Positions 1-55,365 are shown, numbered from the stretch's first letter. The stretch is DNA of 64,000 nucleotides from an uncultured virus (IMG/VR IMGVR_UViG_3300009545_000019) (IMGVR_UViG_3300009545_000019); one strand, 5' to 3'. The notes: a model not told the origin generated them from the sequence alone. Numbers and translations: made by a program.

Positions 1-1
1 C

Positions 2-8774: not shown

Positions 8775-8780
8775 TAGAGC

Positions 8781-19316: not shown

Positions 19317-20866
19317 ACGCATCAGACATGTTGGCAATCCATATGCGCGCTTCCGTATCGGACTTCGAGCACAACGAAGAGCCGGCCAGGCTCAGCTTGC
19401 GAGAGGCCCATCTCGTCGACGTTCTTCGCAGGATCGCGTCCGGCGCCCTCAAGGGGAGAGCGGCACAGGCAGAGTCGGCTGAAGCGCTGGAGGGATGGCG
19501 CGCGGCCGACGAATGTGCGGGATGCCCACGATGTCTTCGACACGCAGAGAAAGAGATCGAGCAGCTCAAGGCGGAAAACGCAGAGCTGCGCGCGCAACTT
19601 GCGCCCGATCCGGAGGTAGCCAAGAAGCTCAGGGCTTATATGCGCGAACAGCTCGTAGAGAAGCTCGACTGGTCCGTTCGAGCGCACTCCGTGATCACAA
19701 GGAAGCTCGCCGTCGACGCGACGATCGCCGACGCGGTCGCCATCCCGCCCGCCGAGTGGCTAAAGGTCCCGCGCTGCACGATGCTCGTCATTCGCGAGAT
19801 GGACAAGCTGTTCAAGAGTCTCGGCGTCGAGTGGCCGGGGGAATGGCCGAGGAGATAGCGATGGGTGTCACACTACATGCGGTTGTGGAGATCGATGTCG
19901 GCGAGTACCCGGGGTACCCGAGATGGCAAATCGTTTCGGAGTGGTGGTTCAACAAGGACTCCGAACTTATCAGCTGGGTTTACGACGGCGCGCAGATCGG
20001 ATGGCCCGACGGCGAAACGCTTCGAGATCCGGACCACGAGTTTGATGATGAGGGGCGACAGTGGTGCGATCTCGCGACGCTTCTCGCTCCTCAGAAAAAC
20101 CCGTTCTTCTGCGGCGAAGTAGGCGGAGAAGAGCCAGAGTGGTTGACTCCGCCGACTGGCGAACGCTTCGGCTCTCTCATCGCTTCGTTGAAATCATTTC
20201 ACGAAAGAAGCATCGACGCTCGGGTGCTTTGGTGGAGGGGCTGATGAGACTCGACGTCATCATGAAGTACGTGAACGCGCGGATGGCCGTGCTCGAGGCA
20301 GCTCAGGACGTCGGCGAAAGCAACTACTGCGCATACTCGGACAAGATTGACGCTCAGGTAAACGCCCACCTTGAGCTCGACAAGATGCTCCGCGAGGAGA
20401 TCGCGGCGAGGAAGAAGGTCACCCGATGAGCGCTTGGAACTACCGCATCATTCGACACCACAACGGAACCTTTAGCATCCACGAAGTCGGCTACGTGAAG
20501 CCAGGCGCGCCCACCAACTGCACCAAAGAGGCCGTTGTAAGCGCCGACTCGATCAAAGAGCTTCGCGAGGAGGTCGACTCCTTTCTCCGTGCCTTCGATC
20601 GTCCCGTGCTCAACGTGAGTGTCTTCGAACAGGCGCGTGGATTCACGCCGTTTCACCAGGAACTCTTCGACGTATCTGACGTCGTAGGTGACCTGGAAAA
20701 AAGGATCATCAAGTTCGACAAGATGGCGAACGACTGCCGAGTGCCACCCGGTGTGCGGGTCAAGATGAACGCTGAAGTGCACCTTGCGAGAGAGGCGATC
20801 GGCCGAGCGAGTTTTCATCTCAGCGAAGCACTTACGATCGAGGTGAGAGAGCGAGTGCTCGATTAA
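19313..20866 (+). other. Four hypothetical ORFs (19313-19858, 19861-20244, 20244-20429, 20426-20866) ending the + strand block
   Basis: Translationally coupled ORFs converging on the structural block. Confidence 0.6.
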
Positions 20867-21669
20867 GCGATCGGAATCGCGTACCGGACGCTCAAGTAGT
20901 TCGCGAGTTGCGTAATCTCGGCACCGGCGAGCACGCGCCGGTAAACACCCTCTTCCGCGATCGGGCCGTTCCACTTCTCCGCGTTCGGCACCGTATCGGC
21001 GGCGCCGAGGAAGAAGCTCGTGATGGTCGAGCCGTCGAGCGAACCCGTCGCAGTCGGAAGGTGTGAATTGAAGTAGAGCTGGCTGCTCGCCCCGTTGTTC
21101 ACGACGATCACGATGCTCGGCGACGTCCATCCGCTGGTCGCGTTGTCGATCTCTCCGAGGCCGTCAAACACGCCCGCGAAAGCGTGCGTCGTGTCTCCCG
21201 AAGGGAAGTGTGCGTAGACACCCGCGTTGCCGCTCGTCTTGTCGTTCCAAATCTCAGGAAACGTGAGCGTAAATCCGACGCCCTGTACGCAATGAGCGGC
21301 GACGAAAAACGTATACGGCGCGGCGAGCGGTACCGTCCACACGCCGCTCTGCATGAAGGAGTTCGGTCCACCTGTGACGACGACGTTGTTGACCGTAGGG
21401 TGGTTGTTGTACGCGGCGTTCGAGGCAGTGAATGTCGGCCTCTGAAGAGGAACGGGAGCCGTCCAGTTGTGATTCGCATCGCCCTCTGTTGCCGAGTCAC
21501 CCCACGCCGAGACGATCCCGGCTGCCTGCGTAACGAGGAGATCTCCGCGGCTCCATTGCGCGAGCCCGGCGAGGTCCGTGGGCGAGAAAGGCGGCGGGCC
21601 AGCGGGACCTGGCTGACCCAGGAGAACGGAGGTCGCAGGGATCACGACAGACCCGGAAAGCCTCGCCAC
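20863..21669 (-). CDS. Concanavalin A/LamG-like virion protein
   Basis: WSRGDL, WGDS, NGPIAEEGVYRRVL..EITQLANYLSVRYAI; paralogous to 26778-27476. Confidence 0.65.
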   Translation of the reverse strand: MARLSGSVVIPATSVLLGQPGPAGPPPFSPTDLAGLAQWSRGDLLVTQAAGIVSAWGDSATEGDANHNWTAPVPLQRPTFTASNAAYNNHPTVNNVVVTGGPNSFMQSGVWTVPLAAPYTFFVAAHCVQGVGFTLTFPEIWNDKTSGNAGVYAHFPSGDTTHAFAGVFDGLGEIDNATSGWTSPSIVIVVNNGASSQLYFNSHLPTATGSLDGSTITSFFLGAADTVPNAEKWNGPIAEEGVYRRVLAGAEITQLANYLSVRYAIPIA

Positions 21670-22328
21670 ACGGCGATCCCCGTCACGGGCGAGATGTACG
21701 AAAGGAACGTGGCGCTGTGCCAGGCACCGGAGATCGCGTACGTCGCGGCGCCGTTGATCAGATCGGCGCCCGTCGTGACGCCGACGACGACGCCTCCTGC
21801 GACGTTCTCGAGCGAGACGGTACAGAAGTTTCCGAGGTTCGCGGTCGCGTCAGGGAGTTTCGGGGTCGCAGCGGCGCCGAAGAGGATCCATACCTCGTTC
21901 TCAGGAGATGCCGTGAGGTTGGGAGAAACTGCGTTCGAGGTGTGAGGCGTCGTTGGCGCAACGCCGACGGTGACTGCCGTGGGTCCGGTGGGCGCGACGT
22001 CGATCCCAGGCCCGGCGAGGACGTTTCCTTGGACGGGAGGACCGGCAGGGCCCGCAGGACCCGCGGAACCCGTCGCGCCAGCCGCACCTGCGGCGCCGGC
22101 CGCGCCCGTTGCACCAGCGGGTCCGGCAGGCCCAGCGGCGCCCGCAGCGCCAGCGGGACCAGGCGGCCCTGCGACGCACATCACGCCGCAGCGCCCGCAC
22201 TCTCCGCAGCGCCATCGCCGGCAGCGTCGACAGAACCCGTCGCTCCAATCGTTGCCGCAGCAGACGCAGCGCCAGCGTCCGTGCACGCGATCGTCGTCCC
22301 TATCAATGCGGCAGCGGTCGTGGCTCAT
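21642..22328 (-). CDS. Cys-rich, collagen-like repeat protein
   Basis: CxxC clusters followed by (G-X-Y)n GPPGPAGAAGAAGPAG. Confidence 0.7.
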   Translation of the reverse strand: MSHDRCRIDRDDDRVHGRWRCVCCGNDWSDGFCRRCRRWRCGECGRCGVMCVAGPPGPAGAAGAAGPAGPAGATGAAGAAGAAGATGSAGPAGPAGPPVQGNVLAGPGIDVAPTGPTAVTVGVAPTTPHTSNAVSPNLTASPENEVWILFGAAATPKLPDATANLGNFCTVSLENVAGGVVVGVTTGADLINGAATYAISGAWHSATFLSYISPVTGIAVWRGFPGLS

Positions 22329-22845
22329 CGTCGGTACCGCGGAAGCTTCTTCGACCGCGCGAGCTTCCTGATGCACGTCGGGCAGACGTGTTCACCTCGA
22401 GCGTGCGCGGCGGCAATGCGCTGGTAGACGTAGTTCGTAACTTTCCAGGGATTTTCGTAGTGATCCGCGTACGGCATCACGTGAGCCTTAGCTTCTTCCC
22501 AGGCTGCTTCGTCTGCGTGTGTTCCGGGCATGACCTACTTCTTCTTCCCTCGTCGACCCGTGCTCCGACCTCGCCACTCGCGAGCTTCGTAGCGCTCGGC
22601 TGCCGCCTTCACGGACTCGGACGGCTCGTCGGAGCGGGACGATCGAAATTTCATCGGTCCACCAGAGTAGCCGCCGCTTAAGAAGGGCGCTGAAGGCGAC
22701 GACGAGAACTGCATCGGGTCGAAGCTTCCAAGTCCGAGGCTCATCGCCATCAGCGCTCTCGCCATGGTGCTCATGAAGAAAGCTTACCCCAAAACGTCTT
22801 TCGCGAGGAGCGCGAGCGTGAGCGCCAGAGCGATGAGGCCGAGGC

Positions 22846-23148
22846 TCATTTGCCTTCTCCATGTATGCACGGAAGAAGTCCGGAGCAGAAGCCGTCGCGC
22901 TTCAAGCATGCGTCCACTGTCTCGGGCCGAGCGTTGCGACAAGCGGCAGCGCATTCATCAACGAGATCGGCGGGGACCTGAAGACTGTCGAGGCACTGCA
23001 TCATGGCACTTTTGCAGATGATGGCGCATGAGATCGTCGATGTATCTGTTACGTGCGTCGTCGTCACAGTGGGTGTCGGCGGGCGCTCGGGCTTGGAGCA
23101 ACCCGCCAAAAGCGCAGCGACAAGGGTCGTTGCGAGGGTTCGGCTCAT
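22846..23148 (-). CDS. Putative Cys-rich lipoprotein
   Basis: Signal peptide with lipobox LLAGC. Confidence 0.55.
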   Translation of the reverse strand: MSRTLATTLVAALLAGCSKPERPPTPTVTTTHVTDTSTISCAIICKSAMMQCLDSLQVPADLVDECAAACRNARPETVDACLKRDGFCSGLLPCIHGEGK

Positions 23149-23804
23149 TGATCGCCTCGAGCGACAGCCTCGGCGTACCGCTGCTTCCACCGATTCCATG
23201 CCTCCACGAGCTCGCGAGAGCCCTTCACGCCTCGGTAGCAGTTGCCGCCGGCATATCCCGCGAACGGCTCCTGGGGGCAGTTCTCGAGGCGTCCTCGGTG
23301 CAGCGCGCGAAGGGCCACCTCGGCGGCGAGCTCGCGGTCAGCAAGAAAGGCCGCCTGGCGCTCGGGCGAGGCGTGCAGCTGCCACATCGTGGCAGCGTGG
23401 CCTGAATCGCATCGCTCGCTTCTGCCGTCCGTCCCGCGCCAGCATGGGCCCACGTCTACGGTCCGTTCGAACGACGACTCGTGCTGGGCGACGGCGAGAA
23501 GGAGCAGGGCATCATCCTCGACGCGCTCAGGATGGCCTGCGTCGACGAGCACGGCCGCTCCTACGACGTCGAACGCGATCCGTTCGAGGCGTGCGTCGCG
23601 CTCGGCAGCGGTCTCGACAGAACCGTCAGCGGGGGCCGCTACGGGTGTCTCCAGGAGCATGCTGACGAGGGTGTCGACGAGCACGCCGTCCGAGTGCGGC
23701 GCCGGCTCGGCAATCACTTCGCACGAGCCGACGAAGACGAGGAAGCCCACGGCGAGGCTGAAGACGAGAAGCCAGAAGAGGTCCCAAAGAAGAGCCTTTT
23801 TCAT
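23145..23804 (-). CDS. Lysozyme/lytic transglycosylase-like protein with an N-terminal membrane anchor
   Basis: LLAVAQHESSF and MWQLH motifs. Confidence 0.55.
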   Translation of the reverse strand: MKKALLWDLFWLLVFSLAVGFLVFVGSCEVIAEPAPHSDGVLVDTLVSMLLETPVAAPADGSVETAAERDARLERIAFDVVGAAVLVDAGHPERVEDDALLLLAVAQHESSFERTVDVGPCWRGTDGRSERCDSGHAATMWQLHASPERQAAFLADRELAAEVALRALHRGRLENCPQEPFAGYAGGNCYRGVKGSRELVEAWNRWKQRYAEAVARGDQ

Positions 23805-24428
23805 GGCCGGGACCCTACCACGCTCTGCGTTACAACTTGAAGTTGTCAGGGTGGAGTGACAATATACGTAACTGCGATGAGGGACATGAACGCGAGGGCC
23901 GTACAGGAAACGATTGACGAGCTGAAGGCCGAGGCGCGCCTTTTGAAGGCTCGCGGGGAACTCGGTCGCGCGGACACGCTTGAGGCTGCTGCGAAGCGTG
24001 TCGAGGCCGAATTCGCTCGAGAGTGCGAGCGACCGACAGCGATGCGGAGCATCTAGGCCTTACCCGCAGGCTTGACCCAGCGACCGTCGGGAAGATGTCG
24101 CAGCCCGCTGATCTCTTCGTAGTACCGCGTTATCTCGTCTTGAAAGTACTTCGGTCGCAGGCGCCGCCGCCGATGGAGTCGCGCCCAGCGCTCTTGGGTA
24201 GGATGAATCATCGCTTCTTCGTCGCAAGGATCTCTTCGCGGCTCTTTTGCGGGAACGGCGGCACGTCGTCCACTTCTTCGTTCGATGCCGGAACGGGCGC
24301 GGCCGGGCAGATGCACACCGCGCTCGCTTGCGGAGACGCTTGGACGGCGCCGGGGCGCTCAGAGCGACATGTCGCTGCGAGCCCGAGACCGAAGCCGATG
24401 TAGACGAAGAGCGCGACCTGAAGATCGG

Positions 24429-25291
24429 TCACGACGTGACTTCGGTGTATCCAGCAGGCGCAGTGTCCAAGACGAACGCCCATCCAACCTCTCCGGGCGC
24501 CGAAGGCGCGGTGAGCGGCGGACTCATGAAGACCCGGTGGCCCGCGACGTTCTGCTGCGCGATCCACGCGCTGACGGTCCCGAGCGCGATCCCTTGCGCG
24601 TTCGGTGTGGCCGCGAGGAGCGGACCGAGGCTCTTCGTCGTCACGAAGGCATGCGGCGGGACGCCGAGGGTCGTGAGCGCCTGATTCGTTGCCTGATTCA
24701 GGTTCGCGAGCGCGTCCGCGTCGGCGATCGTGTACGAGCCGATCGTCGGATCGATGGGCGGCGCCTTCGGAGAAGGTGAAGGCGGAGTCGGGGAGGTCGG
24801 AGAAGCCTTGGTTTCGTGAGCCACGACTACGCCCACGATGACCGCTGCGACGCCGATGCCAAGGAGCAAAGCTGCGGGGTTCGTTTTCATGCTGTGACCT
24901 CTACGAAGTTACCAGGCGGATTCGAGCCAATATAGATGGGAAGGTACGCGCTCGGCGGCGAGCCCGTCTCATCTTGGATGGGCGAGCCGATCCACACGCG
25001 TTGGTTCAATGCGAGCTGACCCGTAACGAAGGTCGGCACGGTGCCGAGGAAAACGGACGACACGGCCGGATTCGCCGCGACCATCTTCGCGACGACGGCA
25101 GGATCGACACCTTCGTACTGCGTCGGCGTGTTCGCGGTGTACCCGAGCGCCTTCCACTTCGCGACGTCGATCACGAGATGCGTGGGCCAGTTCGCCGCGA
25201 CGCTCGAGGCGGAGACTTTTGTTGCAGCCTTCGCCGGTTCAGAGATAACGAACGCGACGGCTGCGAGTGCGAGGATACCGATGAGCCACAT
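24429..25291 (-). other. Two paralogous membrane-anchored proteins (24429-24890, 24887-25291)
   Basis: Hydrophobic N-termini; shared ..LGTV....RVxxxxP....P.xxEVT C-termini. Confidence 0.6.
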
Positions 25292-25798
25292 AGAGGGACC
25301 TTTCAGGAGCGAGCAGGCTTCACTTTACCAGGAGCCTTCGCAGACTTCGCCGTCTTCGTGAGTGGTATCTTCGCAAAGATTTCTCGCGGCACGTCTATCG
25401 GAACGATGCGCCATTTAGGCCCGCGGCGCTTCGCCCGATAGAACAGCTGATCTTCGGCGTATTGCTTCTCGAGGTACCACTCTCCGCTGTACTGGTCGTC
25501 CCAAGAGTTGTTCTTCCCGAGCTGCTCATCTCCGCAGAGCATCAAGTACACGCGAATGTATTTCATCGGTCCTCCGTCGACAGCTCCCACAGATCGCAGC
25601 ACCAGCGATTCGCTGCAACAGGCAACTTCGTACTGCCACCGCCTCCGCCTTTGCTCACCGGAGCGACGACCCACGCGCGACGGACGCACTCGGTGCCGTA
25701 GTTCCGCACGAACTTGCACGACACGCAGCTCGAGCCCCCGCGCGGGACGACGACGCCGATCTTGTGCGGCTTCGTTGCGGGGAGGAGCGCGAGGCGTC

Positions 25799-26446
25799 TC
25801 ATGCGAGAAGATCCGGGTCTGTCCAGCCGTAGACGACGCGGGCGATCGATCCGTTCGGCGAGTCGACGATGAGGTTGCCCTGCGTGGTCCACGTTCGCGT
25901 GTGCGTGCCGACCATCTGTCGGCCGTACTGGTCGGTCATCCCGCCGTCGACCGAGGTGATGGTGTACGTCCCGTCGGCGTTTTGCGTGACGCCCGTGACC
26001 GTGTAGACGTGCGTGATGTCGCCCTGAGGACCGACGGCGACCATGGCTCCGCGCTTCGGAGGCAGCGCATCGGGGCTCGCGAGGATCCACGCACCCTTCT
26101 GCTTCGCGAAATCGATCAGGTCCGTGATAACCATCCCGATCCGGGGGAGGTAGGGTGGCTGGAGATACGGGTCGTCGACGCCGGCCTCGCGCCATTCAGC
26201 TCGAACGGCGAGGCCACAGGTCGAGCTCTGCGGCGCCGAGGCCATGCTCTGCTTCATGTTCTCGGTCTCGCCTGGCCCGCCGAGCCAGTCCCCGAACGCC
26301 GTAGCGTCCTGCGTGGCGCCCATGCCCACCGCGGCTTCCGCTGCGCTCGCGATGCGATCACCCGTCGAAGAAGATCCGCCCATAAAAACGAGTGCTCCCA
26401 GCGCGAAGGTCGCGAGGACGTAGGGGAGAATCTGCCCGGCCTTCAC
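25799..26446 (-). CDS. CHAP/NlpC-P60-like cell wall amidase with an N-terminal anchor
   Basis: STCGLAV (Cys), THVYTV (His), SVDGG. Confidence 0.55.
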   Translation of the reverse strand: MKAGQILPYVLATFALGALVFMGGSSSTGDRIASAAEAAVGMGATQDATAFGDWLGGPGETENMKQSMASAPQSSTCGLAVRAEWREAGVDDPYLQPPYLPRIGMVITDLIDFAKQKGAWILASPDALPPKRGAMVAVGPQGDITHVYTVTGVTQNADGTYTITSVDGGMTDQYGRQMVGTHTRTWTTQGNLIVDSPNGSIARVVYGWTDPDLLA

Positions 26447-26777
26447 CGTGAAAGACTACATCGGCAGCGTGGTAGGGTAAAGCGCATGAGCGACGACGAT
26501 CGCGAGGCCCCGACACCGAGGCAGACCGGTACCTACGGCTTCATGCTGAGCATATGCCGCGACTCAAAGCTCGACCTCGAGCGTTGGCTACCTTCGGTGC
26601 CTCAGCCCATCGAGAAGCTGTCATCGAGCTCATCCAGGAGTTCAAGAAGCTCTCGGTCTGCGTGCAAGGCTGGACGATCGACACACCGCAGGAGTCGAAG
26701 CGCGCGACCGTCGATCTCATCCTCGAACTGCGCGCCGAGGCGCAGGGCTTCGCGGACAGGTACGGGTACAAGCTGCG

Positions 26778-27476
26778 TTAGGCGATCACGATGCCGTATC
26801 GTGTGCCGAAGTAGGTCATCAGTTGCGAGATCTCGGGGTCCGAAAGCACACGGTTGTAGAGAACGACTTCGGCGAGAGATCCGGCCCAGTTGAATGCTGG
26901 GCTCAAGCCGTCCAGGTATCCGCCCACGTTCATGTTCGTAACGCCATGAGCGCCGCCGACGCTTCCTGAATTGGTAGCTGTGCGAGAGTTGAAATAGAGC
27001 GTTCCGTTCGATGCAGCGATGACACTACCGAGTGCACCCGGATTTCTCCAATCACCAGGGCTCGCAACCGTAGCCCCGTCAATGTACGAAGGGAGGTCCC
27101 CTTGGGAAAAAACACCCCAATTGGCTCCTTGATCGGACAGTGCTCTGTAATTGCTCGTGGTTCCGGGCGTATCCCCGACGACGAACAGTGAGAAAGGTTG
27201 CGGAACAGGCACAGCCCATACACCGGTCAAGAGAAATTGAGTCGACGTGTAATCGATCGTGGCCTTGTTGTTGAAGCCTGCATTGTTCGGATTCGCGGTC
27301 GGTCGAGCCGCTCCGGTCGCCGTGGCGTTCTTGTTGGGGTCTCCGCTACCAGACTGGTCCGCCCACGTGAACGTTGCCCCTGACGTCACACCTAGGTCGG
27401 CACGAAGCCAGAAAGCATTTCCGGGAATGCGCGTAGGTTTAAAGGCGCCTTGCTGAAAAGCCGTGTACCGGTTCAC
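26778..27476 (-). CDS. Concanavalin A/LamG-like virion protein
   Basis: FWLRADLG, WADQSG, GSLAEVVLYNRVLS..EISQL..Y...RYGI. Confidence 0.7.
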   Translation of the reverse strand: MNRYTAFQQGAFKPTRIPGNAFWLRADLGVTSGATFTWADQSGSGDPNKNATATGAARPTANPNNAGFNNKATIDYTSTQFLLTGVWAVPVPQPFSLFVVGDTPGTTSNYRALSDQGANWGVFSQGDLPSYIDGATVASPGDWRNPGALGSVIAASNGTLYFNSRTATNSGSVGGAHGVTNMNVGGYLDGLSPAFNWAGSLAEVVLYNRVLSDPEISQLMTYFGTRYGIVIA

Positions 27477-29545
27477 GGCGTCATGATCCAGGTTGTCGAA
27501 TTGAAGGCGAGGAACGTCGCCGATCCCGTGACCGTCTGTGGCGTCGCAGGTGCTCCAGCACCGACCTCCTGAATCGTCTGACCGCCTGCGGCGGTAACGG
27601 TGGCCGACGCGATACCGTCGCAGAGCACTACGATCGATTGACCAATCATGGCCGAGGTGATGGCGGGCAGGTTCGCATTGACAACGCCTGCCTGAAGGAT
27701 GTTCGGTCGACCACCTGTCGCGGGAACGAGCGTGGGGTTATCCACAGCGAACGTCGAGAACGTCTGGTCGACGCCAAGCGGCGCGAAGTAACCGTTCACG
27801 GGCGTGTCCGCGACAGCGACCGCCGCCGCAGTTGCGACGCCTACGCGAGCAGCACCTGCGGCAACCGTCCGTACGCGACCGGGACTCGTCGGGGAGATGC
27901 CTAGGTTGTCGCCGATAGCGATCGTCGCGGTTCCGTCCGAAAGAAAAACCGTAGGGGTGCCGAAGCGTGAGAGTGCAACGTGTTGGCCGGCTCCCGTTGT
28001 CGCCTGTCTTGCGGCGCCGGTGACGACATCGATCTGGTCGGTCGTGGTAATGGCGATGGGACCGCCAGTGATGTTCTTCGCGAGCTGATGGGCGGCAATG
28101 ATCCCATTTGCTACGAAGAGATCTGCGGTCTGACCGGTCCGCTTCACTGTTGTGAGACCGGCAGATGAACGCGTGTCGATGTCGGTGAGGTTCGAATCGG
28201 AAACTTCTACGTAGCCGCAGGCCGCGTCAGCTGTGATGAACTTGAATGTGTTCGCCGGATTGGGGCGGATGTCCTGAACGTAGGCAGTGCCCACCGCGAC
28301 AAGATCCACCATTGGGATGTTCGTGTCGTTGAAGCCAGTGTTGTGGAGGCCGTGGATGTCGAGCAGGTCGGTATTCGATACATGAACTGCGTATGCCGCA
28401 GCCACGCCGCCGCCGCCTGCCGTACCGATCGGTGTGTTGTAAGTGCAGTCCTCAATGACGATATGTTTGAAATTGGCTCCTGGCCCGCCGTTCGCGATGA
28501 TATCTGCTGCCGTACCCTCGTCCCATACGCAATTTCTGAAATGAATAAAGTCGCCGGCCGCCGAATTGATGGCGGTACTATCTTCAAGACGGACGTGACA
28601 AGGCGTGTTGTAGTCCTTCTCGGCAAGAACTGTGAGGCCGTTGAGGCCCGCCGAAATGAACGTGTCGAAATGTCGACAGTTGTCCATGTAAAGCCCTCCG
28701 ACCTGCGTCATGTAGATCGTCGCCTTCGTTCCGTCGGTTGTTCCATTGCTCGCGATGAGGCAATCGCGCATGTAGAGCGTGCCGCCTCCGACGAAAACCT
28801 GCGCAAAGGATGCCGTGGTCCACACGATGGTCACGCGCGAAAGAGACACAAGCTGCGTTCCCTGGGCATCGATGATGGTCTGACAATCGATACCGGGAAC
28901 AGGTTGCGTGCCTACAAAAGCGAGATCTTCGAAAAAGACCTGATAGGCATTGATGAATGTAAATGCGTTCTCTGCGGCGCCGCAGTTCAATTCGAAAAGG
29001 GATGCGTCGGTCCCCGCCCCCTTGATCTTGATGCTCATCGGCATGAGGCCGGGGGTGAATGACCAGAAAGGCTTGGCGGTGCCGCCTATGAGATATTTGC
29101 CTCGTGGCACAAGAAGTGTGCAGCTCTTTTTAGGAAGCATCGGATCGGCGGCGAGTGCCAATAAGATAGTCGCCGCGGTGTTCAACGCCGCAGAGCAGTC
29201 CACGACCCCCGTTGGGTCGGCGCCGCAATCGGTGACGAAGTTGACCTCCCAGCCTCGCTCCCATGCGACGTCATCGATCGCTGTCTGAACTGTCGTCGGT
29301 AGCGTCGGGTTCGGCCAGTTCGTCGTGACTGTCGGCGTATACGCGACTGCCGAAGCGGGGATGGCGTCGGCGTACCTCTTCGTGACGAGGTCGTCTGCAA
29401 TGACCGGATCGGCACCTCGAACGTTCACGAAGGCAGCGTCAGCGGCGTTCCTTGCTTCGATCTCGCCACCGTTGTCCTTCAGGTTTGGACCACCGATGCC
29501 GATCCGGAAAAGAGTTTCGATAGTGCCTCTGATTTTCGACAGCAT
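27473..29545 (-). CDS. Pectate-lyase-like beta-helix spike/receptor-binding protein
   Basis: Shared MLSKIRGTIETLFR anchor; GADPTGVVDCSAALN...VPRGKYL...IKGAG beta-helix start. Confidence 0.75.
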   Translation of the reverse strand: MLSKIRGTIETLFRIGIGGPNLKDNGGEIEARNAADAAFVNVRGADPVIADDLVTKRYADAIPASAVAYTPTVTTNWPNPTLPTTVQTAIDDVAWERGWEVNFVTDCGADPTGVVDCSAALNTAATILLALAADPMLPKKSCTLLVPRGKYLIGGTAKPFWSFTPGLMPMSIKIKGAGTDASLFELNCGAAENAFTFINAYQVFFEDLAFVGTQPVPGIDCQTIIDAQGTQLVSLSRVTIVWTTASFAQVFVGGGTLYMRDCLIASNGTTDGTKATIYMTQVGGLYMDNCRHFDTFISAGLNGLTVLAEKDYNTPCHVRLEDSTAINSAAGDFIHFRNCVWDEGTAADIIANGGPGANFKHIVIEDCTYNTPIGTAGGGGVAAAYAVHVSNTDLLDIHGLHNTGFNDTNIPMVDLVAVGTAYVQDIRPNPANTFKFITADAACGYVEVSDSNLTDIDTRSSAGLTTVKRTGQTADLFVANGIIAAHQLAKNITGGPIAITTTDQIDVVTGAARQATTGAGQHVALSRFGTPTVFLSDGTATIAIGDNLGISPTSPGRVRTVAAGAARVGVATAAAVAVADTPVNGYFAPLGVDQTFSTFAVDNPTLVPATGGRPNILQAGVVNANLPAITSAMIGQSIVVLCDGIASATVTAAGGQTIQEVGAGAPATPQTVTGSATFLAFNSTTWIMTP

Positions 29546-29558
29546 GGTTTCCTCTTTC

Positions 29559-32817: not shown

Positions 32818-32824
32818 AGGAACC

Positions 32825-33316: not shown

Positions 33317-33330
33317 GGGGATCTCCTAGT

Positions 33331-36189: not shown

Positions 36190-36359
36190 GATCGTATCTC
36201 CGTCATCCCCGTATGTTCCACTGAAGCCTACATGCAGACAGAAGTCTTCGCCAGAATCTTCGTCCTCTTCGGGCGAAGGACGACAGACCCCTGGCAAGCC
36301 GCGGTGCGCGACCCTTCTACGCCATCTGCCCCGCCATCTCGCCACTCTGCGAGCTTAGC

Positions 36360-38891: not shown

Positions 38892-38893
38892 GA

Positions 38894-39337: not shown

Positions 39338-39341
39338 GTTC

Positions 39342-40171: not shown

Positions 40172-40180
40172 GAGAACCTC

Positions 40181-42088: not shown

Positions 42089-42091
42089 CGA

Positions 42092-44941: not shown

Positions 44942-46414
44942 TCACTCCTCGTCGGCGGCGGCGCCCTTGGATGCCGCAGTCTCCTCCTTCGGGGTGCCGT
45001 CGTGGATCTCGCACTCCATCGACCTCACGCCGGTCGTGTTGACCGAATCGGCCGCTTGAATCGGAGCAGGGGCGATGTGGTCGGGCTCTTCGCGCCGAGC
45101 GGGAGCCGATCCCTCATGGATCTCGAATTCGATCGACTTCAGACCGGTCACGTTGACCGCAGGCTCGGGAGCCGGAGCAATGCCATCGGTTTCTTCGGTC
45201 TCGGCTGCGCGCTTGACGGGAACTTTGACAGGGTCGAAGCCCTCGTGGATGAGGAGCCGATCGTCGTCGACCACCGGGGCCCCCGCCGACTTCACGGTCA
45301 CTTCGTTGACCAGTGTAGGATTCCCCTCGGCGCCGTGGATGAAGACCTCCATCGCCTCGTCGCCGCCGATCTCGAGATCGCTCTGGCTGATTTCCGTATC
45401 CATGATGCTTTCCTTTTCTGGCCCAAAATTAGCGAGAGCTACCCGCCCTTGTCAGACGGGTAGCCCCCTAGTCTCGGCAAAACTGCGGGGGATCAGTCTA
45501 CCGATACCTCTTGTGATGTGGCCAGTCCCTCGTGCCAAGGCTCAAGCGTATCACTTCGATGTGAGAAGCTCAAAAAGCTTCTTGGCCTTCTCCGGGTCCT
45601 TCTTCTCGAGCATGCCCATCATCTCGCCGAACATCTCGGGATCGTCCATGACGAGTGTCTTGAGCTGCGCCATGGTCGAATCGTTCGCGGGCGCTCCGTT
45701 CGCGGCAGGTGCCTCCGGGCTGCCCTTCAACTTCGCCACGAGCTTTGCGATCTCCGGCGCAAGAACGGGACCGAGGTGGTTCATGCCACTCGCGAGGATC
45801 ATATCCATTCGACGTTCCTTCGCCTCTCGAACGGCTGCCTCCATCTCACGATGATGCTTCGACGTCTGAAGCATTTCGCGTTCCTCGTCGACCTCGGCAC
45901 GTTCGCTTTGGAACTTCAGGATCTGTTGCGCCTGCGCGCGGTTGACGTCGCGCATGTATTCGACGTTCGAGTGCATGAGCTCGATCGACATACGCATCAG
46001 CGCTTCGTTGTGCCGCATCTGCTGCGCCTGTACGCCGGCCGGCGTCGGGGGTTCTGTCTCGCCAGAGCCCATCCCCTTCTGCGGGAGCGTGTTCTGCGCC
46101 TCTCCGGCGACGACGAACTCCATCCAGCCCTTCGTCCGGACCTTCAGCTTGCCTTGCTCGTTCCTGAAGGTGGCGCGAGCGACGAGACGAATCCTCGCGA
46201 CGTGTGAAGCGGCCTCTGCGGCGTTCTTCACCACGCTCTCCACGTCTTCGACGACGTTTTCGGTCGCCTCGTCTACGGGCCCACCGCGGACCTCGATGTC
46301 CGCCTGCTGGTGCACCGGGCCTTCCAACGAGACGACGAAGACTTGGAACTTCGTCGCGGCCGGCTGGAACGCGATCTCTTTCTTGACGAACCTTCGAACT
46401 TTTTCTTGGTACAT
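44942..46414 (-). other. Acidic protein (44942-45403) and helical protein (45551-46414)
   Basis: Open frames; a hairpin and promoter-like sequence lie between them. Confidence 0.55.
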
Positions 46415-47713: not shown

Positions 47714-48535
47714 CTACCGCCGGGTCGGCAGCTCCATCAGCTGCTTCGCTCGCTTCAGGCTGATGGTCTTGCTGCCCGACAGCGACTTGACGCGTCCCGA
47801 AGGCGGCGCGGTGCCCTTGTAGGAGTGCTCGGTGAACGTCTCCCAATTGTGCGGGCCGCCCGCATGACTCCAATGCTCGCGAAGCGTGTGACGCTCACCG
47901 CAGAGCGAGCAGCGCGACGAACCGCGATGCGCCCCGACCGTGATACCACCACGAGGGCCTCGGAAGGCGCCGCGAACGGCGGCCTGACGACGAGCCTTGC
48001 GAGACTTCGGCTTCTCTCGACGTTCCTCCCCACGAGAGCGCTTGTTCGCCGCAAGCATTCGGGCGGTTGCGGCCTTCTGCGCTGTGGTGCGCGGCTTCTT
48101 GCGTCCCTTCGAGGCCTTGCGGGGCTTGCGCACCACCTTGACGTCGATCTCCACCTCGGAACTACGGACGGTGCTCTTGCGAGCCCGCGCCGCGAGCATC
48201 CTCTTGGTGGCCGCCTTCTGCGCGGCGCTTCGAGGCTTCTTGGCCTTCGGCGCTTTCCGCTTCGGCGCCTTGCGCTTGTTCGCCGCGAGCATTTTCGCGG
48301 TGGCAGCTTTCTGCGCGGCGCTACGAGGCTTCTTTCGGCCCTTCGAGGTCTTTGACTGCTTCTTCATCTTCTTTTTGCCGGCCATGTATTCCTCGCGTTC
48401 CTTCGCAAGACGCGCCCTTTCGCGCTCGTCGAGCTTCTTGGCTGACGCCTTTGACATGCGTCGCTTCTTCTGCGCGGACCCGGCGCCGAGCGGCCCACGG
48501 TAGGATTGGTATGCGAGTTCCATTGCTGACGGCAT
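47714..48535 (-). CDS. Highly basic histone-like/core protein
   Basis: Three copies of KKPR(S/T)(A/T)AQKAATxxMLAA; very Lys/Arg-rich. Confidence 0.7.
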   Translation of the reverse strand: MPSAMELAYQSYRGPLGAGSAQKKRRMSKASAKKLDERERARLAKEREEYMAGKKKMKKQSKTSKGRKKPRSAAQKAATAKMLAANKRKAPKRKAPKAKKPRSAAQKAATKRMLAARARKSTVRSSEVEIDVKVVRKPRKASKGRKKPRTTAQKAATARMLAANKRSRGEERREKPKSRKARRQAAVRGAFRGPRGGITVGAHRGSSRCSLCGERHTLREHWSHAGGPHNWETFTEHSYKGTAPPSGRVKSLSGSKTISLKRAKQLMELPTRR

Positions 48536-50255: not shown

Positions 50256-50609
50256 TTACACCGGAATATACAGCGAAACGCCTCGGTGCACGTAGCCCTT
50301 GATGAAATTCGGCGGATGCCACTCCACACGAGCGAGAACCTGTTGCGTGCCGAACGTGCGCGTCGTCGTCGACTCGAGCGGATACGTCGCCGTGTCGTGA
50401 AGAATCGAGACGGCCCACGCGGTCATCTCCGGCGTCACCATGCTCTGCTGCATCGGCGTCCATCCAGGAGGGAACACGTAGTTCGGTGCGACGTCAGGAG
50501 GTGTCGGATCGGTCGACGTCGGCGCGGACGCACTTGAGCTCGAACTCGAAAGCGCGAACGCTGCCACGCCGGCGCCTGCGAGTAGAAGAAGAAGCGTTCC
50601 GCCCTTCAT
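50256..50609 (-). CDS. Membrane-anchored hypothetical protein
   Basis: Hydrophobic N-terminus; ARVEWH...HRGVSLY. Confidence 0.65.
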   Translation of the reverse strand: MKGGTLLLLLAGAGVAAFALSSSSSSASAPTSTDPTPPDVAPNYVFPPGWTPMQQSMVTPEMTAWAVSILHDTATYPLESTTTRTFGTQQVLARVEWHPPNFIKGYVHRGVSLYIPV

Positions 50610-51238
50610 ACCGACAACCTGCCGATCGGATTCCCGCTCGAATCGTAGAGCCGGCCGTACACGTACGCGCGAACGTCGCCGGCTGTGACGTACCCCTTCT
50701 GACCACGGTCGTAGTTGTGGAAGAAGTTGTACGTGCTCGTGCCGCCCGGGATGACGATCGCATCGTCGGGTAGCGTGACCTTCCAGCCGCCACCGGCGAT
50801 AGCAGGGTCGGTCTTATAGCCGGGCGAACGAATGATCGTGTTTCGCACGGCTTCGAGCTGCTGAATGCCGGTCATCTGCCGGAGCTCGTCCGCGGTGTAG
50901 CCCGTGTACGCCGGAGCGTACCTCGGAAGCCACTGAAGGAAGCCCGAACCGCCGTCGCCGGGCTCGAGAGCATCGGGCCTGAACCCGCTCTCCTCGCTGA
51001 TGAGAGCCGCAAGCTTGTCGCCGTCTGCACCGGTCTCCTGGATGACGCCGAGGAGCGCCGAGATGAAGCCGGGCTCGGCGGCTTCACGCTGACGAAGCCC
51101 AGGGAGATCGGGCAGCGAGCCCGAGGCGTACGTCGGCGTCCACGAAGAAGAGATCACGCTGTCTCCCGAACCGATCGCGATCACCAGACCGAGCGCGGCG
51201 AACCCGAGCAGAATCTTCGCCGCGTCCCCGTCCTTCAT
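50606..51238 (-). CDS. Membrane-anchored lytic transglycosylase-like protein
   Basis: LISEESGFRPDA, GSGFLQW, ELRQMTGIQQL, YDRGQKGYVT. Confidence 0.7.
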   Translation of the reverse strand: MKDGDAAKILLGFAALGLVIAIGSGDSVISSSWTPTYASGSLPDLPGLRQREAAEPGFISALLGVIQETGADGDKLAALISEESGFRPDALEPGDGGSGFLQWLPRYAPAYTGYTADELRQMTGIQQLEAVRNTIIRSPGYKTDPAIAGGGWKVTLPDDAIVIPGGTSTYNFFHNYDRGQKGYVTAGDVRAYVYGRLYDSSGNPIGRLSV

Positions 51239-52104
51239 GCGCGGGCCTGATGCGCTCGAACCGCGAGCGCGAACGCCTCGGTTGCTCCGGGCGAAGGCGC
51301 GGCGGCGCCGAACGAACTTCCGTACGAAGCGCCCGCCGTCGCGTACTGCGCCATCGCTCCGTGGATGGCGTCCATCATCTTCTGCGCGAGCTGCGCCGGA
51401 GTCTCCGAACCGGTCCATTCCATGGCGAGCTTCATCACCTTCGCCTTGAGGAACGAAAGCCCTCGAGCGACGCGGTGCACGCCGTCCATCACCATGTAGG
51501 CCTCGATGGCCATCGGATCGCCCTGCGACATACCTTGCGCGAGCATACGAAGGTGCTCGATCGCAGCGTGCGCACGCTGGTGCACGGCCGTGAGGAGCTG
51601 ATGCGCGGCGGCGACCTGGTTCAGCCGGTACACGGCCATCTGCGCCGCGGGCACGCCGGCCTGCGCGTCGCGCACGAGCATCGGATGAACCTGGCCCGTC
51701 CAGTACGCGTGGATGGCTTGTCCGATGTCTGCAACCGGAGACGAATACGCACCGAAGGAGACGACGGCCGCTTGCGCTTCGGGGTCTTGCGCGACCTCCA
51801 TGGCGGCAGCCATCGGGACGTCGGAGTAACCCCACACCTCAGCGTAGGGATTCGCTCCGCCGAACGCGACCGAATGGCCCGCCGAGCGCACAGCGTTCTC
51901 GAGCTTCGCCCCGAGCGCATCGCTCGCGTAGAGCGTCATAACGACGGGCTGCTCATGAATCTGGAACCCGAGATCGACCGTCCATCGGCCGTCCGCCGCC
52001 TGCACCGGCTTCGAAACTGAAAACATGGGTTCCATTTCGTTCTCTTGGGGCTCGACCCGTTCGGTGGACTTCAGCCAGGACAAAAGGAGCAGCAGCGGAA
52101 GCAA
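51235..52104 (-). CDS. Hypothetical structural protein
   Basis: 289-aa ORF in the structural operon; start uncertain. Confidence 0.6.
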   Translation of the reverse strand: MLPLLLLLSWLKSTERVEPQENEMEPMFSVSKPVQAADGRWTVDLGFQIHEQPVVMTLYASDALGAKLENAVRSAGHSVAFGGANPYAEVWGYSDVPMAAAMEVAQDPEAQAAVVSFGAYSSPVADIGQAIHAYWTGQVHPMLVRDAQAGVPAAQMAVYRLNQVAAAHQLLTAVHQRAHAAIEHLRMLAQGMSQGDPMAIEAYMVMDGVHRVARGLSFLKAKVMKLAMEWTGSETPAQLAQKMMDAIHGAMAQYATAGASYGSSFGAAAPSPGATEAFALAVRAHQARA

Positions 52105-52482
52105 CTAGTAACCTCGAACGAGGCAGCCAGCGGCGAGCGGATATCCCAGGTCGCGCATCAAGGTAGATAGCGCCTGCTTCACCGCCGTGCTTCCCGACGA
52201 GAGCGCCGACCGTACGACCGTCTGCATGTCCGCCGGAAGGTTCGCGTCGAGCGTGCACGTGTACTGGTAGGGCTGCGTGTAGAAGATTGGCTGCTGGAAG
52301 AACCCGCGCTGGCGATTGAACGGGAAGCCGCCGATCCGACCGAGGAACCCGCCTCGCTCTCGGAAGCTACCGCCTCGGCTAACGCCGAACCCGAGCCCTT
52401 GCGGCTGCGAAGGCGTGGACGGCTTCGGCGAGTTGCAACCCGAGCACGATGTATTCGAAACGCTGCAAGCTTCACACGACAT
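52105..52482 (-). CDS. Cys-rich protein carrying the shared C...GYPLAAGCL domain
   Basis: MSCEACS start; CTLDANLP...LGYPLAAGCL. Confidence 0.6.
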   Translation of the reverse strand: MSCEACSVSNTSCSGCNSPKPSTPSQPQGLGFGVSRGGSFRERGGFLGRIGGFPFNRQRGFFQQPIFYTQPYQYTCTLDANLPADMQTVVRSALSSGSTAVKQALSTLMRDLGYPLAAGCLVRGY

Positions 52483-52492
52483 GACGAGCTCC

Positions 52493-53137
52493 TTATGACT
52501 GCGGAACCGTGGGCAACGGTTTCGCCAGCGGGTTCCAATCCTTCGGGATGAGCACCTGCGTACCGGGGATCCATCCCGGGAAATTGTAGACGCCATTTTG
52601 GTCGGGTTGCAGCGTCCCGATCTGGTTCAGCGGAGGGCCGATCTCTCGAACCTGCGCGGCCGTCGGATACCCTCCGAGGTAGTACTTCGCGAGTCCGTAC
52701 GGTGTGTCGCCCGTCTGAATCACGAACGGCATTCCGCCGAGCTGTTCGAGCTGCGTCTGCTGCGCGAGCATCTGCTGCTGACCCTTCAGGCGGAGACATT
52801 GAGCCGTCTGCGGGAAGCCGGCGGCGTCCGCCTTGGTCGCGAGATCTTCGTAGCTCGCCTGCGTCAGCGTCGTCGATGCGAGGGCGTTGTTCACCTGGGC
52901 CTGCAACGGTGCAGGCACACCCGGATCAAAAGCGCACGTTCCGTCCGGTCGGAGAGGAGACGCGGGAGGCATCGGGGGGACAACCGGAGTCGGGGTCGGA
53001 GCAGGCGCTGGTGTTCCGCTTGGCTTCGGAGCAGGCTTCGGCACCGTCTCGGCCTTGGCCGTCCCGCTCAAAAGGAAGGCGCCTCCGGCGAGCGCCACGA
53101 GACCAACGAGCAAACCTGCGGAAGACTTTTTTGCCAT
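52493..53137 (-). CDS. Membrane-anchored LysM-domain protein
   Basis: FVIQTGDTPYGLAKYY...IPGTQVLIP; N-terminal anchor and shared Cys-bracketed domain. Confidence 0.75.
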   Translation of the reverse strand: MAKKSSAGLLVGLVALAGGAFLLSGTAKAETVPKPAPKPSGTPAPAPTPTPVVPPMPPASPLRPDGTCAFDPGVPAPLQAQVNNALASTTLTQASYEDLATKADAAGFPQTAQCLRLKGQQQMLAQQTQLEQLGGMPFVIQTGDTPYGLAKYYLGGYPTAAQVREIGPPLNQIGTLQPDQNGVYNFPGWIPGTQVLIPKDWNPLAKPLPTVPQS

Positions 53138-53140
53138 GAC

Positions 53141-53377: not shown

Positions 53378-53381
53378 CGTT

Positions 53382-54071
53382 CTATGCCTTCTTCGCAAGA
53401 AGCAGCCTGCATCGAGGCGCCGTCAAATCGTTCGCTTTGCCCAGATTCATACCAAGCTCGCCCGATGGATCCTCGTTCGAGCCGTCCGGGTTCTGCACCG
53501 TCACGTGATACAATATCCCATCGGGCATGCGCTGGGAGATCAAATTCGGCCGACAAGGATCACCTACGATGCGTCGTTCAGCGACTCGAGCGCAGGCGAG
53601 ATCTTCGCAAACGCCGTGGCCGCGCTGGTGGAGCGCCTCGATCGAATCCCATAGCTCCTCGGTGCCCTTCACCTTCGGCTTGTAGCAAACCGATTCGTAG
53701 ACGCTCGGGTACGCGCTCTTCCCGGCGGAACCGATGAGCCCATGCATCCTCGCGCGGATGCACCAGATATTGACCGCGACGAGCGCTTCGAGGGCGTCGT
53801 AGAAGACGACGGGCGGCCCGTTCGACCATGCCGGCGGGCTGTTCTTTGGAACGAGCACGCGCATGGCGACGATCTCAGGCTGATCGGAAGCCTCGTTGCT
53901 CCCGAAGTCTGTCGCCACACCCCAATGTTGCCCAGCCGGCTTTTCGTAATTCGTCAGCTCGAAGGCGAACTGCCGGATGATGTCGACCGCTTCCCCGTAA
54001 GGGACTCCGCGCTCATCCAAGTGTCCCGGAACTTCGAACGTGATCGGAAAAACCGAGCTGAAATGGCGCAC
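53382..54071 (-). CDS. Transglutaminase-like cysteine protease
   Basis: Catalytic triad pattern GVCEDLA (Cys), YHVTV (His), EDPS (Asp). Confidence 0.75.
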   Translation of the reverse strand: MRHFSSVFPITFEVPGHLDERGVPYGEAVDIIRQFAFELTNYEKPAGQHWGVATDFGSNEASDQPEIVAMRVLVPKNSPPAWSNGPPVVFYDALEALVAVNIWCIRARMHGLIGSAGKSAYPSVYESVCYKPKVKGTEELWDSIEALHQRGHGVCEDLACARVAERRIVGDPCRPNLISQRMPDGILYHVTVQNPDGSNEDPSGELGMNLGKANDLTAPRCRLLLAKKA

Positions 54072-54122
54072 AGGCTACCTGTTCTTTGCGAGGCGACCTG
54101 TGCGCCGTTCCGGCATGTTTCC

Positions 54123-54929
54123 TCAGACGCAGGGGCTGAAGCGGCGGAACTCTTCCGGCCCTTCCTTGAACCACGCGCCGGCCTTGAACGCGCGGGCGTT
54201 GGTCTCGACGCCATTGACGAGCGCCGACGGGAGGGTGTTCTTCACCGTGATCTTCAGCTTCTGACCGGGGCGAAGCATGTGCGTTCGGATGCCTTGGCCG
54301 CCGACCGCATCCTCGCGGAACATGCAGCCCGGGATGTCTCCCGTGCCGCCGAGCAGGCACTCGCGACCGACGCGGATCTCGACGACGTCAAAGACGTCGC
54401 AGGTGCCTTCCGGAATGACGATCGACCAGAGCATCATGTCGGTGTCGATCTCCATCTTGATCGTGGCCTGGAGACCCGGGGGGACCAAGCGACAACCGGT
54501 GCCGATGCCGACCGGGATCAGCTGCCCACGATCCATCTCCTGAACGGTTCGCCCGTCGAGGAACTGTTGCTGGATGCGCGGCGGCAGATCCTTGAGATCG
54601 CGGAGGAGCATCGCGTACGCGTACGCGGCGCCCGTCGGCGTGGCGGGGTTGTTGATGTCGGCGAGGTTCAGCGGCGCGCACGACATGCTGTACTGCGGAA
54701 TCGAGGCCGGAGGACCGAACCCGCAGTTGTTCCAAAACCCATCTCCTCCGAAGCGGGGATCCTGCGCCTGCGGCGCAGATCCAGCGAAACGCGGAGCGGG
54801 AGCAATTCGACGATCTCCAACGGGGAGATAGGGGTTGAATTTCACGAGAACTCTGCCTTCTGACAAGGTGAACTGTTTTTGTCCGTTTCCCCCGGACCTG
54901 CCGCCGACACCGGTCGGCGACAAGTTCAC
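54123..54929 (-). CDS. Candidate major capsid protein with a C-terminal single jelly-roll-like domain (start uncertain)
   Basis: About 120-aa C-terminal run of alternating beta strands (LIPVGIG, ATIKMEI, LWSIVIP, FDVVEIRVG, KLKITVKN, FKAGAW); second gene of the late operon. Fold is inferred. Confidence 0.5.
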   Translation of the reverse strand: MNLSPTGVGGRSGGNGQKQFTLSEGRVLVKFNPYLPVGDRRIAPAPRFAGSAPQAQDPRFGGDGFWNNCGFGPPASIPQYSMSCAPLNLADINNPATPTGAAYAYAMLLRDLKDLPPRIQQQFLDGRTVQEMDRGQLIPVGIGTGCRLVPPGLQATIKMEIDTDMMLWSIVIPEGTCDVFDVVEIRVGRECLLGGTGDIPGCMFREDAVGGQGIRTHMLRPGQKLKITVKNTLPSALVNGVETNARAFKAGAWFKEGPEEFRRFSPCV

Positions 54930-54984
54930 TTGCTGACTTCGGGCCTCATCCGCGAGGAGAAGCCTCAGCCGTCAGCGGAGCTTT

Positions 54985-55365
54985 TCAGGCAGCGGCTGCC
55001 GACTTCTGACCACGCTTGTACGCGGCCATGCCAGCGGCGTACGACGCGGCGCCCTCGCCAGCGGCGAGAACGAGGTCGGCCATGTCACCGGCGTACCCCG
55101 AGACAGCGTACGCGATGAGCGCGGCGCCGCCCCATGCGGAGATCGGCACGTTCGCGGCTTGCGCTCGGGCCGGGTACTTTCCCTCGACGTAGCCGAAGAG
55201 TCCGCCGGTCACGATGGCCGCTGCGGTCTCCTTGATCTGGTCGAGTTGAACCTTGTGCTCGAGGGCCGCTTTCTTGGCGCGGGCCACGAGACTGTTGTTC
55301 TCGCGAAGCAGGTGCTCCTGATCGCGAACGGAGAGGCTGCGTCCTTGCAAGATCGAATCTGCCAT
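54985..55365 (-). CDS. Hydrophobic structural protein, first gene of the late operon
   Basis: Ala/Gly-rich hydrophobic helices; GAGGA RBS. Confidence 0.65.
   Translation of the reverse strand: MADSILQGRSLSVRDQEHLLRENNSLVARAKKAALEHKVQLDQIKETAAAIVTGGLFGYVEGKYPARAQAANVPISAWGGAALIAYAVSGYAGDMADLVLAAGEGAASYAAGMAAYKRGQKSAAAA

Follow-up and report, generated by a model that had tools for sequence, protein, structure and literature searches.

The minus-strand gene arm of a virus represented by 64,000 nucleotides of DNA (IMG/VR IMGVR_UViG_3300009545_000019; this whole stretch is called the window below) carries no recognizable gene for a head, a tail tube or sheath, or DNA packaging. The source is best read as an uncultured virus with a temperate life cycle, present in samples of rhizosphere and of soil. 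The lack of these genes in what would be the late arm (60.1 to 20.9 kb) is real and is more than chance. With a probability of about 40%, we read it as the mark of a very divergent tailed phage whose head genes lie outside the window. Since the window covers only part of a genome whose length is 79 kb or more, the choice between a tailed and a tailless virus cannot yet be made from this part alone.

We translated 115 open reading frames (ORFs), 68 on the minus strand (20863-60111) and 47 others, and compared all of them with Pfam and PHROGs and the 68 also with NCBIfam. Terminase, portal, HK97 or major capsid, tail tube, sheath and tape-measure families of Pfam and PHROGs matched 0 of the 68 minus-strand ORFs and 0 of the 47 others, and the head, tail and terminase families of NCBIfam matched 0 of the 68. 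The strict Walker A motif, [GA]xxxxGK[ST], is absent from all six frames of the 64 kb. When the motif was relaxed to GK[STDN] in ORFs of at least 150 amino acids (aa), 14 matches were found, and only those in the helicase (1607) and the dNMP kinase (11337) resemble a P-loop. ATPase families of the three libraries gave no match in the late arm, no FtsK/HerA-type (A32-like) packaging ATPase with a Walker A motif was found within the window, and the late arm holds no soluble unexplained ORF of at least 400 aa. A hidden terminase was considered for the helicase-like gene at 1394-3130 and rejected, because its product is a full-length homolog (27% identity, E = 8e-49) of the replication helicase of the phage genome MW202816.1, which has its own terminase.

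An initial annotation of this DNA, made from the sequence, had reported no terminase, portal, HK97 capsid, tube or sheath, tape measure or Walker A ATPase, and this agrees with the counts above for the 115 ORFs and the six frames of the window. Its broader wording, that no Caudoviricetes genes are recognizable, is overstated: in 4 of the 68 ORFs, collagen repeats and a glycine-rich domain give matches to tail-fiber families of PHROGs, two further ORFs (lectin-like paralogs) match a 'virion structural protein' family, and 'baseplate hub' gives one weak match, which lies over a lysozyme-like domain. The late block was also said to be flanked by non-structural genes, and in the window we indeed find DnaJ and ParB on one side and the integrase and replication genes on the other. 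Since no packaging ATPase of either viral type is present in the window, any actively packaged capsid needs genes from outside, which undercuts the premise that the 34-kb block (20863-55365) encodes a whole virion. Some of the genes for morphogenesis are probably located outside the window.

The window, with a G+C content of about 62%, is indeed only part of a genome. An 18,731-base metagenome contig matches its first 3,728 bases with 0 mismatches, window base 1 being contig base 15,004, and extends the genome to the left by at least 15,003 bases. The other end is passed by a 9,943-base contig from the public rhizosphere run X2, which begins at window position 63349 and continues for 9,291 bases beyond the right end. 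The genome size is therefore at least 79 kb, and 88 kb should the left and right extensions be free of overlap. No overlap was found when the upstream part of the 18,731-base contig was compared with window positions 56-64 kb by blastn, so that no circular closure was seen, and the last 40 bases of the window had no match in viral_contigs. The sequence examined outside the window consists of the 8,607 bases directly upstream, which carry genes for a ParB-like protein, a D5-type primase-helicase, a protein with a MUG113 domain and two exonucleases. If the extensions do not overlap, a further 15.7 kb or more of the genome lie beyond that stretch.

In a divergent tailed phage, the gene order of the minus strand would be explained as follows. 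The distal 16 kb (36.3-20.9 kb) would form a host-recognition module, in which three fibers or spikes dock on the particle through one N-terminal adaptor, with collagen-like, glycine-rich and lectin-like proteins at their side. The proteins of the proximal 17 kb (55.4-38 kb) would act on or in the host envelope. The terminase, portal, capsid and any tail genes would be found in the at least 15.7 kb that lie beyond both the window and the examined upstream stretch. We infer these roles, and the place of the head genes, on a background of observed gene content, missing families, genome extent and the fold of one domain. Among the facts that favor a tailed phage, the genome continues past both ends of the window, a packaging motor is missing inside it, the spike proteins have an adaptor in common, and the replication module belongs, by homology, with those of tailed phages. 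The protein encoded at 381-995, whose matches are all phages of Mycobacterium or Gordonia, points the same way.

The best record for both the polymerase and the cysteine-peptidase-like protein is MW202816.1 (Caudoviricetes sp. ctsHD2), a 48.5-kb circular myovirus genome from a spring metagenome. It has five genes in common with the window, at 26-35% identity (SNF2-like helicase, PolA, DUF7768 protein, RuvC and cysteine-peptidase-like protein), none of them structural. The two-arm layout is also alike, with convergent replication and late arms. Unlike the window, however, MW202816.1 carries an ordinary terminase, capsid, Mu-type head genes, tail chaperone and baseplate in its late arm, and BLASTP found 0 matches to these in the window. 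Its annotation also differs in having no cluster of membrane-targeted proteins, and its homolog of 37959-38891 stands beside an amidase at the end of the late operon.

Several observations weigh against a tailed phage. A late arm of 39 kb without a head or tail gene is very unusual for such a phage, and MW202816.1 has all its head and tail genes in the late arm. The DNA left for the head module is flanked by plus-strand genes of early or replication type, and is therefore an odd place for it; no structural genes were found in the 8,607 bases upstream. It is not obvious what a tailed particle would do with fifteen membrane-targeted proteins, a hyperbasic protein and a jelly-roll protein. Finally, six block proteins or family members were compared with 50,697 phage records by tblastn and none had a match, namely the proteins encoded at 45551-46414, 51235-52104, 31957-32817 and 27473-29545, the capsid candidate (P0001) and a member of its family (P0012).

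The capsid candidate (54123-54929) is a real gene, with a G+C content at third codon positions (GC3) of 0.80 and an identical 240-aa protein on record (P0001). An exhaustive HMMER search of 1.84 billion representatives returned eight proteins at E <= 1e-3, including P0001 itself. All real matches fall within residues 108-211, and the eighth protein (P0002) covers just the short stretch 79-106. Among the relatives, P0003 has two copies of the domain, and P0008 has a signal peptide followed by four tandem copies. A profile search extended the group to a family of 33 proteins, mostly of 188 aa, in which the N-terminal third is helical and the domain forms the C-terminal part. These 33 proteins have neither names nor Pfam domains, and 0 of 35 family members match a PHROG. 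The contigs that bear the family are up to 85,002, 84,593 and 128,897 bases long (P0012, P0025 and P0037, respectively), and the two of about 85 kb suggest that distant relatives have genomes of similar size. Scans of viral_contigs with the profile of the 188-aa family or with P0037 gave no match. One Actinomadura locus from a scan of genome_contigs was not confirmed as a member by our hidden Markov model, and a sample of 401 genomes from the same phylum as this Actinomadura genome contained no member of the family. Longer, fused forms of the domain were searched for and none was found, which is weak evidence.

AlphaFold2 modeled P0001 from 35 sequences with a mean predicted local distance difference test score (pLDDT) of 64, which rises to about 90 over the eight-stranded sandwich at residues 110-221; helices precede it at 70-85 and 89-96. 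Foldseek found no solved structure at E <= 1e-3, and its weak rows were generic sandwiches and a phage tail fiber. Among predicted viral structures, three were found at E <= 1e-3, all unnamed. The named rows, all with E > 1e-3, include tail-fiber and collagen-like proteins of tailed phages, which speaks for a tailed phage. The look-alike clusters of P0001 in the Atlas are unnamed viral ones with mostly Uroviricota labels, a lead only in the same direction. The tandem beta-sandwiches behind the signal peptide of P0008 are also in the manner of a binding module. A search with VIA, which is independent of Foldseek, covered 48,161 chains and placed chain 6h82_b of HHIV-2 first (Z 8.0, root-mean-square deviation 4.2, 108 residues), followed by a GOLD domain (7.8), PHM (7.7), HCIV-1 6h9c_Z (7.7) and SPV1 (7.0), with P23-77 VP17 (6.4) and PRD1 P3 (5.9) further down. 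A second, independent model, that of P0003, whose C-terminal domain reaches a pLDDT of about 95, returned the same top two (6h82_b, Z 8.2; 6h9c_Z, Z 8.1) and then SPV1 (7.6). In VIA, however, models that have no true match typically reach a best Z of 7-8, and differences of up to one Z unit between rows count as ties.

Since the sphaerolipovirus scores tie with those of GOLD and PHM, the reading of the candidate as a capsid protein is undecided. Both descriptions given in the initial annotation, a beta-rich capsid candidate and a jelly roll, are therefore right in part: the gene is real and its model is an eight-stranded jelly-roll-like sandwich with a pLDDT near 90, but the likeness to capsid proteins is loose and is equalled by cellular sandwiches. 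On this model the domain is jelly-roll-like, and it may or may not derive from a viral capsid. We also considered a double jelly roll for P0003, which its model does not support (predicted template modeling score 0.42, a long low-confidence linker and no compact double barrel).

The likelier of two rival explanations is a tailless virus with a membrane, which we consider possible but not probable. As a whole, the picture would be that of a temperate bacterial virus of at least 79 kb, tailless and membrane-containing, with a penton-like jelly roll, about 15 virion membrane proteins and a replication module of tailed-phage type (PolA, D5 primase-helicase, SNF2), a combination that we put forward only tentatively. 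The region from 38 to 55 kb would then encode virion membrane proteins, a single-jelly-roll vertex or shell protein (54123-54929), basic DNA-condensing proteins and wall-cutting entry enzymes, and that from 21 to 36 kb vertex spikes on one common adaptor. The ATPase and the major capsid protein would lie outside the window, in a Varidnaviria-like arrangement, or else the DNA would be packed without a motor in a nucleoprotein core. The lack of any head, tail or terminase match among the 68 late-arm ORFs in three libraries is what such a virus would show, as are the 15 N-terminal and three C-terminal hydrophobic segments predicted there and a protein with a net charge of +64. Both structural models, with the same sphaerolipovirus penton and capsid proteins as their top two matches, also speak for it, and so does the two-arm layout, from which it would seem that the window already contains every late gene. 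However, the FtsK/A32-type ATPase that this explanation itself requires is lacking in the window, where no strict Walker A exists, no second jelly-roll gene was recognized next to the candidate, and the core module of an ATPase and two capsid genes is not present. The domain is also only about 110 aa long and is found in tandem copies in a secreted protein (P0008), and the replication genes are common to tailed phages. The size of at least 79 kb is far above the genome sizes of the membrane-containing phages that we know, and a literature search found no bacterial membrane-containing virus of this size, although this does not prove that none is in print.

Known membrane-containing viruses are alike in some respects and unlike in others. 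The best structural matches of both models are the HHIV-2 penton protein VP9 and the HCIV-1 capsid protein VP4 of the Sphaerolipoviridae. We take chain 6h82_b to be the penton protein from its length and its 40 disordered N-terminal residues, as given in the structural description (PMC6414509). In that source, VP9 consists of an N-terminal helix and a single barrel docked on membrane proteins, a layout that the 188-aa family resembles with its helical N terminus and C-terminal barrel. In contrast, the domain has no sequence similarity to them (a search of PDB sequences with profile A4 gave nothing usable), and the window has no packaging ATPase or pair of capsid genes. Sphaerolipoviruses also infect haloarchaea, and their genomes are linear and of about 30 kbp (PMC12643093). 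In PRD1, the packaging ATPase P9 drives DNA into a membrane-lined procapsid (PMC6356626). Neither a double jelly-roll capsid protein nor a P9-like ATPase, as in the Tectiviridae, was found in the window, and the genome is several times larger. An internal membrane, spikes at the vertices and numerous small membrane proteins of the virion are features of the Tectiviridae (PRD1) and of other membrane-containing phages. The polymerase of tectiviruses is a protein-primed one of family B, and that of the window belongs to family A.

The proximal cluster also bears on a further explanation. A Kyte-Doolittle scan predicted N-terminal hydrophobic segments in 15 block proteins, two of them after the start had been moved to an internal Met, where about 12 N-terminally anchored proteins had been proposed, and C-terminal segments in three further proteins. 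Tail-anchored proteins are among the products of this cluster. Many of the N-terminal segments in the proximal 17 kb are rich in Gly, Ala and Leu and are followed by Pro/Ala-rich linkers, and many N termini, inspected by eye, end in AxA and resemble cleavable signal peptides. The cluster also encodes several basic helical proteins and a coiled-coil protein. The earlier proposal of basic core proteins fits the protein of net charge +64 at 47714-48535, a candidate for such a role by its composition. Two other proposals turned out weaker than first stated. The cysteine protease next to the capsid candidate has only a sub-threshold family match and no usable match among PDB sequences, and the membrane-anchored muralytic enzymes come down to the weak matches at 50606-51247 and a sub-threshold CHAP match (0.012) at 25799-26446, with no family match for 23145-23804; PDB sequence searches gave nothing usable for the latter two.

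Five membrane-targeted paralogs of the cluster have in common a two-cysteine domain of about 55 residues with the pattern C..D..P...Q......L ... G[FY]P..A.CL. In its alignment (A1), C4, P11, Q15, L22, G45, P47, A50, C52 and L53 are invariant. The domain has no match in Pfam, PHROGs or NCBIfam, and a profile scan found none in viral_contigs. A predicted lipoprotein is encoded upstream of the distal module, together with the GT2, phosphatase-like and cysteine-peptidase-like proteins. Elsewhere in the cluster, 43993-44739 (minus strand) encodes a predicted exported protein of 248 aa with the stretch …ARLPTLAEYDML…. We presume that this stretch recalls the motif of formylglycine-generating enzymes, or sulfatase-modifying factors; Pfam gave no such match.

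The cluster at 38-55 kb may not belong to the virion at all, and its products may be exported accessory proteins for lysis, wall remodeling, phage exclusion or modification of the host surface. Its carrier would then be a temperate phage, a phage-plasmid or a large satellite with a capsid taken from elsewhere. We regard this as improbable. Signal-peptide-like N termini ending in AxA, with their Pro/Ala-rich linkers, would direct the proteins out of the cytoplasm and so away from particle assembly there, and the two conserved cysteines suit an oxidizing compartment; the gene content also includes two predicted lipoproteins, a glycosyltransferase, a phosphatase-like protein, an integrase and genes of ParB type. 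However, 17 kb is large for accessory genes, the fiber genes belong to the same operon-like run as the cluster, and the cluster includes basic and coiled-coil proteins that are not exported. We know of no satellite or plasmid of such a make-up.

In the distal module, the adaptor stretches of the proteins encoded at 27473-29635, 30719-31957 and 31957-32883 share 63-69% identity over 64-84 aa (BLASTP; repeat family D1) and the proteins then diverge. Past the adaptor, one is weakly pectate-lyase-like (Pect-lyase_RHGA_epim, 4.6e-4) and another is glycine-rich (Gly_rich_2, 3e-7; phrog_863, 3.2e-18). Their neighbors are a glycine-rich protein of 531 aa, three proteins of collagen type and two ConA/LamG-like paralogs; the paralogs share 33% identity (E = 1.6e-25) and match phrog_10356 and Laminin_G_3 below the threshold. 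Multi-spike tailed phages of the K1-5, CBA120 and phiK64-1 types carry several depolymerase spikes on one adaptor, and the proteins of 27473-32883 are alike in their conserved N-terminal docking part and differing distal parts. Unlike in those phages, no tail or baseplate gene adjoins the cluster, and two of its proteins are without a tblastn match in phages.

Under every reading, the block is new at the level of sequence. The two-cysteine domain and the jelly-roll family of at least 33 members are new families, with no match in PHROGs; the proteins tried against 50,697 phage genomes had none there either. Should the head genes lie outside the window, the virus still represents a previously unsampled lineage of soil phages with a 17-kb membrane-targeted cluster. 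If they are absent, membrane-containing non-tailed bacterial viruses would reach a genome size and a replication machinery so far found in tailed phages only. A tailless virus would have by far the largest genome of any membrane-containing phage and possibly assemble its particles without a terminase, and it would bear on the exchange of capsid and replication modules between virus realms. The positions of the genes and modules discussed are collected in Table 1.

Table 1. Genes and modules of the 64-kb window, with the evidence for each assignment
Feature	Position	Strand	Evidence and details
Replication and lysogeny arm	1..20866	+	SNF2-like helicase 1394-3130, DHH phosphoesterase, family A polymerase 5321-8332, RuvC-like, dNMP kinase, dCTP deaminase, tyrosine integrase 18063-19316
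Distal end of the late arm	20863..27476	-	ConA/LamG-like 20863-21669 and 26778-27476; collagen-like 21642-22376; anchored 23145-23804, 24429-24890, 24887-25291 and 25799-26446
Receptor-binding cluster (putative)	27473..32883	-	27473-29635, 30719-31957 and 31957-32883 with a common 64-84-aa N-terminal adaptor; fourth gene 29559-30995 among them
Collagen-like and glycine-rich fiber-like proteins	32825..36345	-	32825-33316, 33331-34239, 34750-36345; Pfam Collagen, PHROG tail-fiber via collagen repeats, phrog_863 8.1e-16
GT2 glycosyltransferase	36360..37301	-	Pfam Glycos_transf_2 2.6e-17
Cysteine-peptidase-like protein	37959..38891	-	phrog_19005 5.3e-19; MW202816.1 homolog, 27% identity, E 2e-23 (tblastn, BLASTP)
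Protein with C-terminal dual-specificity-phosphatase-like domain	39342..40166	-	Pfam DSPc 5.7e-6, below cut-off; phrog_10650 5e-6
635-aa protein, Gly/Ala-rich middle	40181..42088	-	hydrophobic segments 5-23, 236-254 and 612-630; no family match
Three more membrane-targeted two-cysteine-domain paralogs	42092..43773	-	42092-43102, 42901-43392, 43405-43773
287-aa soluble protein, scaffold-like by composition only	45551..46414	-	long charged helical C-terminal half; no family match
Hyperbasic candidate DNA-condensing protein	47714..48535	-	82 K+R of 273, net +64; three internal repeats (family D2, 81-nt units)
N-terminally anchored protein, weak lysozyme/lytic-transglycosylase-like domain	50606..51247	-	phrog_196 4.9e-7; sub-threshold Pfam Phage_lysozyme2 0.005 and SLT 0.19; PDB lytic transglycosidase E 0.083
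Ala-rich, probably helical protein, 266-289 aa	51235..52104	-	no family match
Two two-cysteine-domain proteins	52105..53137	-	52493-53137 (N-terminal hydrophobic segment), 52105-52596; BLASTP links among paralogs
Possible transglutaminase-like cysteine peptidase, adjoining the capsid candidate	53382..54071	-	Pfam Transglut_core sub-threshold, E 0.031, 15 bits vs cut-off 23; Cys/His/Asp spacing by eye
Capsid candidate	54123..54929	-	P0001 (240 aa) starts at codon 29 of the ORF; residues 1-56 disordered, helices ~61-96, eight-stranded jelly-roll-like sandwich 110-221
Small hydrophobic protein of 126 aa, rich in Ala and Gly, upstream of the candidate	54985..55365	-	translation; no family match
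Non-structural genes heading the minus arm	55452..57350	-	DnaJ-domain 55452-55892 (Pfam 7e-14), 198-218-aa protein 55889-56485, ParB-like 56469-57350 (ParB_N 7.4e-9, TIGR00180 1.8e-17)

The two arms of the window, replication and lysogeny genes on the plus strand (1-20866) and one gene run on the minus strand (60111-20863), collide head-on at 20863/20866, and small plus-strand ORFs start again at 60166 and continue up to the window end. No tRNA gene and no Rfam family was found in the window, and scans for promoters and terminators stayed at chance level. The protein encoded at 55889-56485 found nothing in the Atlas. At least two ParB-like genes are present in the genome, one at the head of the late arm (56469-57350, minus strand) and one in the upstream replication region (175-1146 of contig L001, plus strand).

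The metagenome scan returned four contigs in total, and two of them (L003 and L004) carry a helicase 84-85% identical to that of the window, so that a related strain or species co-occurs in similar samples. Contigs of runs X1 and X2 fuse position 56382 straight to 62780, with six other letters between them and a depth of about 4. Some genomes in those samples therefore lack the 6.4-kb segment from ParB to the early genes, or have it replaced. Another joint, 54374/55310, was seen in three runs and set aside, its support consisting of 21-letter sides only. The divergent early region (60568-62354) contains short direct repeats: a 65-nt gene start is duplicated at 61569/62290 with 97% identity, and repeats of 40-46 nt occur at 60568/60813 and 61085/62045. 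Duplication of small genes, together with their upstream signals, may explain these repeats.

In the replication arm, the helicase (1394-3130) has no relative in viral_contigs, and a search of PDB sequences gave nothing usable. The family A polymerase (5321-8332) contains an insert of about 390 residues at approximately 490-885, which starts with Cys and splits a conserved stretch (...GKV / CNFG...). The insert shares 28% identity with intein-bearing ribonucleotide reductases of T5-like phages and matches no Pfam intein family; judging from this similarity, it is probably an intein with a homing-endonuclease part. Adjoining the helicase, the product of 381-995 (plus strand; phrog_4652) matched 30 records by tblastn, all of them phages, 25 of Mycobacterium and 5 of Gordonia, and these matches may hint at an actinobacterial host or gene pool.

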